Notes under the pieces: generated by a model
Database searches by the model: none
Told to the model about the DNA's origin: nothing
The model's input: only the letters and a program-made list of their open reading frames with translations
Made by a program: the position numbers and the translations under genes
In this document: in pieces, positions 22,546-24,174 of the stretch
Position numbering within the stretch: position 1 is the first letter of the stretch
Layout: each line of letters opens with the position of its first letter
Source of the DNA: an uncultured bacterium
GTDB taxonomy: Bacteria > Babelota > Babeliae > Babelales > Babelaceae
Length of the DNA: 64,000 bases
Direction: 5' to 3'
Assembly (NCBI GenBank): GCA_963819815.1
Contig: CAWFXL010000001.1
Span: 1,440,001 to 1,504,000 of the forward strand

Positions 22546-24174
22546 ATGAAAAGAAGCTTGAAAGTTTTAATAATCGGTGCTGCATTGTGCACGCTTACCC
22601 CCAACATGGCTCTAGCTGCTGACGCACTCGGCGGACTCATTGGAAGGCTTAAGGACTTGGCTACTAATCAAAAGGTAACCGATCTTGTCAAAAATGCATT
22701 TGATAAAGTTGGTGAAGGAGTGAAAAGTGTTCAAGACAGGGCTGCAGCTATAGAGACAGAGCGCCGGGAGGCGCATAGAAAGCTTAGAGATAATCTTTCT
22801 AAAAAGGCGAATGATCATACCCTGCAAAAATGGGAAAGAGAGGCTGCGCAAAAAGCATTATTGGATGAGGATGAACGGCATAGAGCGAATATGCAAAGGA
22901 ACGACGAAATTAGCCATGATGTTAAGAAAATGGCGGCGAACGCTGTTGGCAAGGCGGTGGATTATGGAATACAGGAAAGTTTTGCTATGGCAGCTCATAG
23001 CCGTAATCTCGAAGCGATAGCTCTTGAAGCGGCCCAAAAGCGTAAGGCGGCTGTGGAAAGTACCAAGGAGTACATCAAGGCTTTTACCGATCCTAAGAAC
23101 CTTACGAAGTTTGTTCTTGCTGCCGGCGGAGTGTTTGGTCTCTACTTCGGTCTTAAGCATGGTATTACCTATATTGCAGAGCAGTATAAAAAGCCAGAGC
23201 TTGCCGATTCTAATAAAACATCCTTAAAGTTTGGACCTCTCAACTTTTTTAAATCGTTGATTTATGGCACGATACAGGAAGATTCAGCTCTTTCAGATGT
23301 GATTTTAAAGCCTGAACTAGCTGAAGAGGTTAATGAGATTACTCAATCTCTTAAAAATATTGTGATGAATGGTGGCTATTTTGATAACTTGATGCTGTGG
23401 GGTCAGCCAGGTACTGGTAAAACCATGCTTGCCATGAGAATGGCCCGATCATGTGGTCTTGAATATATCTATTTTACGGCATCTAACTTAGAGACATTTA
23501 GCACCGAAGAGGCCTCTGCTCAGCTGGTACAGCTCTTTAGATATGCGCAAAATTCGCCGCGTAAGCTGATGATTATTATAGACGAGGCTGAAGCGCTTCT
23601 TGGAAGTCGTAGTAGGCCGGATATGACCGATAAGAAACGTACTCTTCTCAACCTTGTACTTGGCTATACGGGTACAGAAAGCCGTGACTATATGGTTACT
23701 GTGCTTACCAATAGGCCAGAAGATATCGATGAGGCGTTCCTCAGTAGGTGTGGTATGCGTATTCAAATTGGTGCACCGGATAAAACTGAACTGCGCGCGA
23801 TTCTTAAATCATACGTTGAAAAGATGTTGTTCAATGCATCGAACTTGAAGCCTGAGAAACCTTCATTCCTCAGTCCGAAATTCTGGTTTGGTAAGACTGA
23901 GAAGATAACTCCACCGACGATAGAAGAAGGAGCTCTCTCTGAAGAGGCTCTTGATACTCTAGCCGAAAAACTCAATGGTTTTGTTGGACGTGATATTTCT
24001 AAGCTTGTCTTTAGAATTCAAGGTTCAGCATTTACCACCGAAGATCATAAGATCACCGCTGCCTTGATTAATAAGGCTGTTGATAGAATGCTTAAAGAGC
24101 GTGCGGCAGAAAAAGGTGGATTTATTCGGGAAGGAACGAATAAGGGTGCTCCCAAGGCTGTAGCTGCTGCTTAG
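22546..24174 (+). CDS. ATAD3-like AAA+ ATPase with signal peptide, coiled coil and TM segment
   Basis: Walker A GQPGTGKT, Walker B IIIDEAE, sensor-1 LTNRP, Arg finger FLSR. Start ATG 22546 follows GGAGG. Confidence 0.85.
   Translation: [542 protein letters not shown]

Follow-up and report, generated by a model that had tools for sequence, protein, structure and literature searches.

Does a gene of an uncultured bacterium encode a true relative of the eukaryotic mitochondrial protein ATAD3, or is the likeness confined to the AAA core? The question is raised by a gene at positions 22546 to 24174 of a stretch of 64,000 nucleotides from the phylum Babelota, here called the window, which corresponds to C1:1440001-1504000 in a two-contig assembly of 1.64 Mb (42.7% G+C, 88% complete). 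A first-pass annotation of this DNA had proposed a resemblance to ATAD3 well beyond the AAA core, and had read the product either as an effector acquired from a eukaryote and aimed at host mitochondria or contact sites, or as a bacterial relative of the ATAD3 ancestor. The sequence comparisons reported below lead us to place the product of this gene, as a bacterial member, in the ATAD3 clade of the classical AAA ATPases.

We compared an alignment of 52 bacterial members of the family with an alignment of 16 eukaryotic proteins bearing the Pfam domain PF12037 (ATAD3_N), using hhalign. The two matched with a probability of 100% and an E value of 3e-84 over 370 columns (residues 154-530). Segment by segment, and with FtsH and Vps4-like proteins as controls, the E values were as follows:

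Coil, residues 25-153: ATAD3 0.22 (no match), FtsH 0.62, Vps4-like 0.68
Membrane helix plus linker, residues 154-279: ATAD3 8.8e-16, FtsH 0.026, Vps4-like 0.28
AAA core, residues 280-430: ATAD3 2.7e-55, FtsH 3.1e-26, Vps4-like 2.5e-32
C-terminus, residues 431-530: ATAD3 6.9e-19, FtsH 9e-4, Vps4-like 1.3e-3

Since the values outside the core lie far below those of the FtsH and Vps4 controls, the likeness beyond the Walker motifs is specific to ATAD3 and far past chance. It lies on both sides of the core, as the first-pass annotation had suspected, and the membrane-helix-plus-linker region pairs with the correct place in ATAD3 (P0192 residues 276-391). The shared order of coil, membrane helix and AAA module, also claimed there, holds as an order but not as similarity of the coil sequence. 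Of the PF12037 domain, only the last part, the membrane helix with KPSLVRETS, is common to the bacterial protein. The pairings that the annotation had drawn with human ATAD3 segments are also seen with database-derived ATAD3 proteins. The gene and the parts of its product are:

22531..22536, plus strand: Shine-Dalgarno sequence GGAGGA, read in the sequence, 9 nucleotides ahead of the ATG at 22546
22546..24174, plus strand: gene of the ATAD3-like AAA ATPase, 542 amino acids plus stop
22546..22617, plus strand: putative signal peptide (residues 1-24), read by eye, with n-region, h-region and A-x-A before the predicted cut
22618..23100, plus strand: N-terminal helical or coiled-coil region (residues 25-185), predicted to be periplasmic, with AlphaFold2 (AF2) helices at 42-89, 95-153 and 157-181
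23101..23166, plus strand: Gly/Ala-rich membrane helix (residues 186-207), which aligns with the ATAD3 membrane helix
23188..23223, plus strand: juxtamembrane motif (residues 215-226), by alignment conservation the counterpart of ATAD3 KPSLVRETS
23401..23424, plus strand: Walker A, GQPGTGKT (residues 286-293; G286, G289, G291, K292 and T293 invariant)
23569..23592, plus strand: Walker B, MIIIDEAE (residues 342-349; D346 and E347 invariant)
23704..23763, plus strand: sensor-1 Asn and Arg-finger region (residues 387-406; N389 and R401 invariant), which aligns with ATAD3 TNRP..LD.AV.DR
23836..24135, plus strand: C-terminal lid and ATAD3-type C-terminal region (residues 431-530), including the conserved stretch 478-487 (G481 and R482 invariant)
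24145..24171, plus strand: C-terminal tail GAPKAVAAA with an Ala-Ala end, which is shared by 14 of the 52 members
24247..24278, plus strand: terminator-like hairpin (12 pairs, of which 8 are G-C) with a T run behind it; 73 nucleotides past the ATPase stop

All catalytic positions are invariant across the 52 members, and those of Walker A, Walker B, sensor-1, the Arg finger and sensor-2 are intact. In the juxtamembrane motif, P217 is invariant and T225 and S226 are nearly so; in the 16 ATAD3 proteins, the P, L, E and S are conserved. An AF2 model built from the 52 homologs had a mean predicted local distance difference test (pLDDT) value of 82.7, and the AAA fold at about 256-523 exceeded 95. 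In this model an unbroken helix (183-213) includes the Gly/Ala-rich hydrophobic stretch 186-207. The hydropathy of the membrane helix resembles that of its ATAD3 counterpart, with a median of 1.52 in the family and 1.74 in eukaryotic ATAD3. The list of open reading frames (ORFs) also holds a longer frame, 22522..24174 (plus strand, 550 amino acids), of which 22546 is the second ATG; because GGAGGA lies 9 nucleotides upstream of that second ATG, the 542-residue product is the better choice, in agreement with the coordinates first assigned to the gene.

A word-indexed search of 5.8 billion proteins scored 8000 candidates, of which 57 reached E<=1e-3 and 36 were bacterial-type relatives. Next came three proteins with both PF12037 and PF00004, from Ochromonadaceae (E 3e-33, 82% query coverage), from Cryptosporidium ryanae and one more, followed by P0041, which has the AAA domain only (E 2.8e-15); generic AAA proteins set in at about 3e-11 and FtsH-type proteins at about 2e-7. 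By BLASTP, an animal ATAD3A homolog named as such by its source (P0257) aligned at 27% identity over 462 columns (E 6e-40) in a single segment that reaches from the coil across the membrane helix, KP.L..ETS, Walker A and Walker B to the GxxGR[DE]I lid; similar single-segment matches were obtained with the stramenopile, Cryptosporidium and third ATAD3 proteins. In an exhaustive HMMER search the hits numbered 20570 at E<=1e-3 and fell to 2740 at 1e-10 and to 219 at 1e-30, and a Pfam scan of 30 selected hits found PF12037 in 14. A search hit named Populus is a different AAA protein without PF12037.

The standard libraries point to another answer, namely that the protein is a bacterial AAA ATPase of the generic kind and resembles ATAD3 in the AAA core only. 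Pfam and NCBIfam give generic AAA models only: PF00004 (E 3.3e-21) with weaker P-loop models in the former, and in the latter matches that all fall far under their cut-offs. PF12037, the domain to which the first-pass annotation had looked for a check, was matched neither by the protein at E<=0.01 nor by its first 285 residues at E<=10, and likewise not by three paralogs and five other bacterial members. A sequence search of the PDB retrieved 268 distinct sequences at E<=1e-3, which cover only about residues 282-427 (Cdc48/p97, Rix7 and Afg2 at the top), and Foldseek with the model returned only generic classical AAA structures, namely FtsHi, Rpt subunits, p97, NVL, Msp1 (rank 17) and YME1. 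No entry titled ATAD3 is among the listed PDB sequence or Foldseek hits, and the absence of ATAD3 from the PDB hits is thus uninformative. PF01434 (M41) has no match in the ATAD3-like protein, which is therefore not an FtsH; the single PF01434 match of the genome, at C1:124280, is a separate FtsH. The automatic annotation of the Joint Genome Institute (JGI) already labels some family members ATAD3A/B.

Against the generic answer stand the segments outside the core (8.8e-16 and 6.9e-19 for ATAD3, versus 0.026-0.28 and about 1e-3 in the two controls), the PF12037 proteins as next-best database matches after the family itself (E 3e-33), and phylogeny. The tree input consisted of 74 proteins, trimmed to 45 residues before Walker A through 260 after it: 31 bacterial rows (29 database members including the window protein, and two paralogs from its own genome), 16 PF12037 proteins, 11 unclassified proteins and 16 other AAA proteins. 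FtsH-like, Vps4/SpoVK-like and other AAA search hits formed the outgroup, together with three AAA proteins of the window's genome including its FtsH. One paralog without a Walker A match (L006) was left out, and P0041 was dropped after the first tree for its long branch and odd composition. The careful tree (IQ-TREE, LG+C20+F+G4 by posterior mean site frequencies, 73 rows, 285 columns) united the bacterial family and ATAD3 in one clade (100/100, branch 0.87), apart from the 16 other AAA proteins. Two quick trees gave the same clade with 99-100 in the Shimodaira-Hasegawa-like approximate likelihood ratio test (SH-aLRT). The AAA phylogeny that the first-pass annotation had suggested thus groups the protein with ATAD3 and not with generic bacterial AAA proteins. 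What that annotation had named as speaking against itself, clustering with generic bacterial AAA families and no likeness outside the Walker motifs, was found neither by hhalign nor in the tree. The hhalign comparisons, the FtsH and Vps4 controls and the careful tree refute the generic answer, to which we attach next to no probability.

The gene lies on a bacterial contig of 1.6 Mb among bamA, topA, prfA, mreC, gatA and aminoacyl-tRNA synthetase genes, and so does not qualify as a nuclear-encoded mitochondrial ATAD3. As it is not mitochondrial and the ATAD3_N domain as a whole is absent, we speak of a bacterial ATAD3-like family and not of ATAD3.

How far does this family extend? Its profile matched 131 of the 261 genomes of the window's phylum at E<=1e-30 and 116 at E<=1e-40 (counted as table rows); in the 15 genomes between these thresholds the matches may be generic AAA proteins. 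Matches were found in 94 of 189 high-quality genomes, in 76 of 145 genera and in 9 of 9 genomes of the window's genus, with no more than 5 copies per genome. The matching genomes all measure 0.5-2.4 Mb and all belong to one order. Where the sources attach an organism name to a family member, it is either Candidatus Babela massiliensis or Candidatus Dependentiae bacterium. In other phyla, a contig scan keyed on a generic Walker A pattern gave only generic AAA loci (best 23-34% identity to the core). The window's own genome holds four or five paralogs of the family, which include, besides the gene described above:

L002: 441 amino acids, counted from the signal-peptide Met; ends ...ATAAA
L004: 551 amino acids, minus strand, within C1:1150643-1153818; intact motifs; the copy nearest to animal ATAD3
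L006: 479 amino acids, minus strand, adjoining L004; Walker A reads GPSGCGKR and Walker B YIDNAQ
L003: C1:860987-861792; two ORFs (185 and 179 amino acids) with one TGA inside the match

Judged by its motifs, L006 is probably catalytically dead, and L003 reads as a pseudogene or a sequencing error. The genome also encodes, at locus L008 (C1:57515-61006), another AAA protein of 773 amino acids with a signal-peptide-like N-terminus (MFFRRYFCIIICLTICLAGKFYAG); the tree places it among the outgroup, where it shares a very long branch with L005.

Directly upstream of the ATPase gene lies a second gene of the same strand that we regard as its operon partner:

21058..22506, plus strand: partner gene, 482 amino acids; the product is mostly helical, with an N-terminus like a signal peptide and a hydrophobic helix at the C-terminus

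A gap of 39 nucleotides, which holds the Shine-Dalgarno sequence, separates the partner gene from the ATG at 22546. We surveyed 12 loci from 12 other genomes in addition to the window, that is 13 loci with 15 ATPase genes. By tblastn with the 482-residue partner, a homolog was found directly upstream of the ATPase gene at 9 of the 12 loci, and 15 of 15 ATPase genes have a co-directional ORF of 384-583 amino acids immediately upstream. These upstream ORFs align, with common motifs QNTLL and G.YK.D and conserved P and W positions. A hidden Markov model (HMM) built from the 10 partners confirmed by tblastn recovered the five held-out partners (E 8e-71 to 1.4e-8) and one fragment, and nothing else among 1702 ORFs from the window's genome and the fetched loci. 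The pairing spans four families of the phylum and, by best match, both ATPase subfamilies described below. Most partner members share the signal-peptide-like N-terminus and the hydrophobic C-terminal helix. No match was found in Pfam, the best E value in a PDB profile search was 0.42, and the ESM Atlas gave no usable hit. The AF2 model of the partner is all-helical (pLDDT 75.9), and its best fold-search match (Z 5.9) is within the range for unrelated helical proteins. A complex prediction of ATPase residues 25-245 with partner residues 24-482 scored 0.00 and, made without controls, counts neither for nor against binding.

Just upstream of the partner gene, at 13825-20817 of the window (plus strand), are twelve tandem paralogous small ORFs of 162-225 amino acids, with 19-39% identity to the eleventh (19662-20207). 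Every one of them begins with a signal-peptide-like sequence and contains hydrophobic helices as well as a helix region in which E.L..AI...V..LL is conserved. Three of them were scanned without a Pfam match, and tblastn found no homologs of the array at the 12 related loci; similar-sized ORFs occupy its position in loci L089 and L092.

What could such a protein do in a bacterium? In ATAD3, according to a 2026 Plasmodium ATAD3 paper (PMC13249166), the ATPase lies in the matrix, the second membrane segment in the inner membrane, and the N-terminal part reaches the outer membrane and the cytosol. Keeping this orientation in a bacterium requires export of the 160-residue N-terminal domain, and hence a signal peptide or signal anchor. 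On such a reading a signal peptide would be the expected bacterial solution and not a mark of secretion. The Sec-type signal peptide of the first-pass annotation does have the Sec form, and 47 of the 52 family members have a signal-peptide-like N-terminus by a crude in-house heuristic, which is not SignalP. We consider it probable that the protein is a motor anchored in the bacterium's own envelope, with a periplasmic coil and a cytoplasmic ATPase; we infer this N-out/C-in orientation from the signal peptide, the single helix homologous to that of ATAD3 and the pattern of Ala-Ala tails. In such an arrangement, the Sec signal peptide would export the 160-residue helical N-terminal domain into the periplasm, and the Gly/Ala-rich helix would halt translocation within the inner membrane. 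The AAA module would remain in the cytoplasm, where ATP is available, and like other AAA proteins probably form a hexameric ring, here on the cytoplasmic face of that membrane. The helices would cross the membrane, and the periplasmic coils with the membrane-anchored partner would pass ATP-driven movement on to the periplasm or the outer membrane. The target process could be, for example, envelope organisation, membrane contacts or the handling of membrane or exported proteins. In terms of ATAD3, the cytoplasm would be the equivalent of the matrix and the periplasm that of the intermembrane space.

The Ala-Ala end enters this argument through its distribution in the genome. It was found on 27 of 1190 ORFs of at least 150 amino acids versus 8.4 expected from composition. 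Of these 27, 23 are signal-peptide-like versus 486 of the 1163 others (Fisher p 1e-5, a statistic inflated by paralog families such as a nine-gene cluster), and among signal-peptide-like ORFs no C-terminal dipeptide is commoner than AA (23 of 509 versus 4 of 681 others). Most carriers consist of a signal peptide, an ectodomain, a Gly/Ala-rich membrane helix and a polar tail of 15-20 residues that ends P-x-x-[AST]-A-A. As the tail follows a C-terminal membrane helix in these carriers, it is placed on the cytoplasmic side. The ATAD3-like protein and L002 have the same ending after their AAA modules; other carriers lie at C1:606340-621114 (nine paralogs), C1:9316, C1:12610 and C1:683472, in addition to the tail at 24145-24171 of the window. 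The tail may be an undescribed cytoplasmic C-terminal signal on these membrane proteins. It would probably be read on the cytoplasmic side, and may be a degradation or sorting signal for Lon or FtsH, which is speculation; two Lon proteases and one FtsH are present. Two other candidates were dropped. For a ClpXP degron, the only PF00574 match was an S49 peptidase in the window (22.8 bits) and no ClpP was found; for a periplasmic tail-specific protease, there was no PF03572 (S41) match in the 88% complete genome. A transfer-messenger RNA gene at C1:1058578-1058946 (minus strand) encodes the tag peptide AEMPGLNAHVACA, which ends ...HVACA and is marked not identified by ARAGORN.

Several points weigh against an envelope motor. 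The N-terminal coil has no detectable similarity to the N-terminal domain of ATAD3, either by hhalign or by PF12037, and it is by analogy with ATAD3 only that the protein would function as a membrane-spanning motor. In our reading of the alignments, the position of pore loop 1 is occupied by ETFS here and by an APLG-like sequence in ATAD3. With no aromatic-hydrophobic-Gly at this place, classical substrate threading is uncertain, and it may be that neither the bacterial protein nor ATAD3 threads substrates in the classical way. The membrane helix is of moderate hydropathy (17-residue Kyte-Doolittle mean 1.43; 28 of the 52 members reach 1.5), and its flanking charges, with 3.0 K+R upstream and 2.3 downstream, depart from the positive-inside rule and are uninformative. 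By the same heuristic, 43% of the genome's ORFs of at least 150 amino acids are signal-peptide-like, which makes a signal peptide weak evidence of anything specific. To this are added the inflation of the Ala-Ala statistic, four or five secretin genes in the genome, and signal-peptide proteins of the phylum some of which are thought to reach the host (PMC6561590, PMC4378268).

Because of the helix hydropathy, the abundance of signal-peptide-like ORFs, the secretins and the secretion presumed for the phylum, we retain, as quite improbable, the effector of the first-pass annotation. The whole protein would be exported via Sec, perhaps by a secretin system or outer-membrane vesicles, into a protist host. 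Fuelled by host ATP, it would there mimic ATAD3 at the mitochondria of the host or at membrane contact sites. The signal-peptide-like N-terminus suits such a route, a weakly hydrophobic helix may fail to stop transfer, and the AAA protein of locus L008 has a similar N-terminus. Two published reports also count in its favour: a cultured member of the Dependentiae, in which 44% of coding sequences carry signal peptides, reorganises and expands the host mitochondrion (PMC6561590), and secretion has been proposed in Babela for AAA-Ulp1, a different AAA family with signal peptides (PMC4378268). However, the helix is homologous to ATAD3's own membrane helix, and the conserved partner, with its signal peptide and hydrophobic C-terminal helix, fits a complex in the bacterium's own membrane. 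The Ala-Ala tail is common to the genome's signal-peptide proteins with a C-terminal membrane helix and short tail, and a VirB4-type secretion ATPase was not found in the 88% complete genome. The family is moreover old, widespread and multi-copy across the phylum, not host-specific, and a mimic of ATAD3 would be expected to retain the outward-facing ATAD3 N-terminal domain, which this protein does not. On balance the effector is the less likely of the two readings that the first-pass annotation had offered.

An envelope motor leaves the question of where the family came from. Within the careful tree, bacterial subfamily 1 comprises 28 rows (96/87), including the window protein and L002, and subfamily 2 comprises 7 rows (97/94), including L004; P0190 is a further unplaced row. 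The sister of subfamily 1 unites eukaryotic ATAD3, five proteins without a signal peptide, subfamily 2 and P0190, supported only at 90/79, which is below the star threshold. The eukaryotic ATAD3 rows group together in 15 of 16 cases (81/96), with P0148 unplaced beside them, and the five proteins without a signal peptide (P0037, P0155, P0174, P0182 and P0186; 100/100 as a group) lie within the ATAD3 clade. Forcing all 36 bacterial rows to be monophyletic cost 12.0 log-likelihood units and was not rejected by the approximately unbiased (AU) test (p 0.118); in an earlier test on a quick tree p was 0.77, and the constrained tree there beat the quick free search. L004 aligns with animal ATAD3 at 37% identity over 304 columns (E 2e-53), versus 27% for the window protein, consistent with the placement of subfamily 2 by the eukaryotes. 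Its database neighbours are bacterial-type relatives, one of them named Candidatus Dependentiae bacterium, and then directly dozens of named animal ATAD3A/B homologs. Another member of subfamily 2, P0139, has its best matches (no more than 54% identity) in two families of the same phylum. Among the eukaryotic PF12037 proteins, P0038, P0133, P0170 and P0183 belong to one well-supported subclade and have hydrophobic, signal-peptide-like N-termini and, in some, extra N-terminal sequence; they may be paralogs targeted elsewhere than to mitochondria.

We give an even chance to a single ancient event in which the ancestor of the parasite phylum received ATAD3 from a eukaryote, either a host lineage or a stem eukaryote. 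Later, a signal peptide and a new coil would have taken the place of the N-terminal domain, the partner would have been recruited, and a duplication would have given rise to the two subfamilies. ATAD3 occurs widely among eukaryotes, with named hits from animals, brown algae, an ochromonad and Cryptosporidium. The only organism names on bacterial members belong to the Dependentiae, a phylum of protist parasites. The window also contains a weak, sub-threshold match to RING-H2, a domain of eukaryotic type. Both bacterial subfamilies have the signal peptide and the partner, which favours a single bacterial origin, and a single bacterial clade is not rejected by the AU test. On the other hand, the best tree splits the bacteria, with subfamily 2 beside the eukaryotes and a constraint that costs 12 units, and the bacterial clades are nested in no particular eukaryotic group. 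The same tree can be read in the opposite direction, since it nests eukaryotic ATAD3 and subfamily 2 inside the bacterial diversity, and the signal peptide and operon partner common to the two bacterial subfamilies are missing from eukaryotes. Eukaryotic ATAD3 would then descend from an envelope-spanning AAA ATPase of Dependentiae-type intracellular bacteria, or share with it an ancestor older than LECA, the last ancestor common to all eukaryotes. We think this rather unlikely; if true, the organiser of mitochondrial inner-outer membrane contacts would be the gift of an ancient parasite, and the partner gene would hint at the ancestral job of the machine. Of what was first proposed for this gene, kinship with ATAD3 has stood; as to its origin, the best tree puts eukaryotic ATAD3 inside bacterial diversity (90/79), and a single bacterial clade is not rejected (AU p 0.118).

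Placed beside known systems, the protein resembles ATAD3 most closely. The two can be aligned along their one membrane helix, KP.L..ETS, the linker, the classical AAA module, the lid with GxxGR[DE]I and the helix at the C-terminus, and both proteins have a single Arg in the second region of homology of the AAA module. They share the order of parts (a long helical N-terminal region, the membrane helix, AAA) and would share the orientation across an inner membrane. The bacterial protein differs by its Shine-Dalgarno sequence, operon partner, Sec signal peptide and Ala-Ala tail, and by an N-terminal coil that is unrelated in sequence and leaves PF12037 unmatched. It also lacks the first, outer-membrane segment and the Pro-rich motif described for ATAD3 (PMC13249166). 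Identity to ATAD3 is only 27-29%, and the paralog from the same genome reaches 37%. With FtsH and YME1, which are among the top core matches, the protein shares a classical-clade AAA module, an inner-membrane anchor and a domain in the periplasm or intermembrane space. However, it has no M41 peptidase, the genome's FtsH is a separate protein, FtsH falls in the tree outgroup, and the membrane-helix-plus-linker and C-terminal regions are unmatched by FtsH (E 0.026 and 9e-4). Msp1/ATAD1 and Bcs1 are organelle proteins that likewise have a single AAA module held by one membrane helix. Their anchor is N-terminal and they have no large exported domain; they are absent from the best sequence hits of the ATAD3-like protein, a difference with no profile comparison behind it.

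The remainder of the window is of bacterial character. Neighbouring genes encode Omp85/BamA, an acylphosphatase, GluRS, MetRS, TopA, RF-1, GatA, MreC, GidB, the a and c subunits of ATP synthase and a prepilin peptidase. The hairpin behind the ATPase gene is the best of its region, a match to the consensus only, and such sites are no commoner than in shuffled sequence. Two features of the window suit a host-dependent cell, a nucleoside transporter and the protein with the RING-H2 match. The latter (29016-29972, minus strand, 317 amino acids) matches PF12678 with E 7e-7 and 29.8 bits versus a cut-off of 31 bits, and may carry a eukaryote-type ubiquitin-ligase domain in a bacterial genome. At 4328-5290 (minus strand), adjoining the a-subunit gene, a protein of 319 amino acids has three stretches that match the ATP synthase c-subunit model and looks like a multiplied c subunit.

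Our literature search, in which supplements were not covered, found no paper on a bacterial ATAD3-like family and none that joins ATAD3 with the Dependentiae. Combining ATAD3 with Babela, Vermiphilus, Babeliales or Chromulinavorax gave nothing, and co-mentions of ATAD3 and TM6 were unrelated work on human and C. elegans. Searches on ATAD3 with horizontal gene transfer, prokaryotes or a bacterial homolog gave nothing relevant. The text of the 2026 Plasmodium ATAD3 paper contains neither "bacteria" nor "prokaryot" (PMC13249166). In the same text, ATAD3 is described as essential for mitochondria in animals and Plasmodium and as long believed to be restricted to multicellular eukaryotes. Another paper links it to human neurological disease (PMC8042885).

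The mechanism of ATAD3 is unsettled. In the bacteria it has a large sister family that shares its membrane helix, linker and motor, and the hundreds of diverse sequences of this family could serve studies of covariation and structure; its proteins are possibly easier to express. Its conserved operon partner may hint at the substrate or target of the motor. It also gives a concrete case on which to test gene flow between parasites of protists and early eukaryotes. For the biology of the Dependentiae themselves, the finding adds an envelope machine of unassigned role that would be present phylum-wide and in multiple copies.

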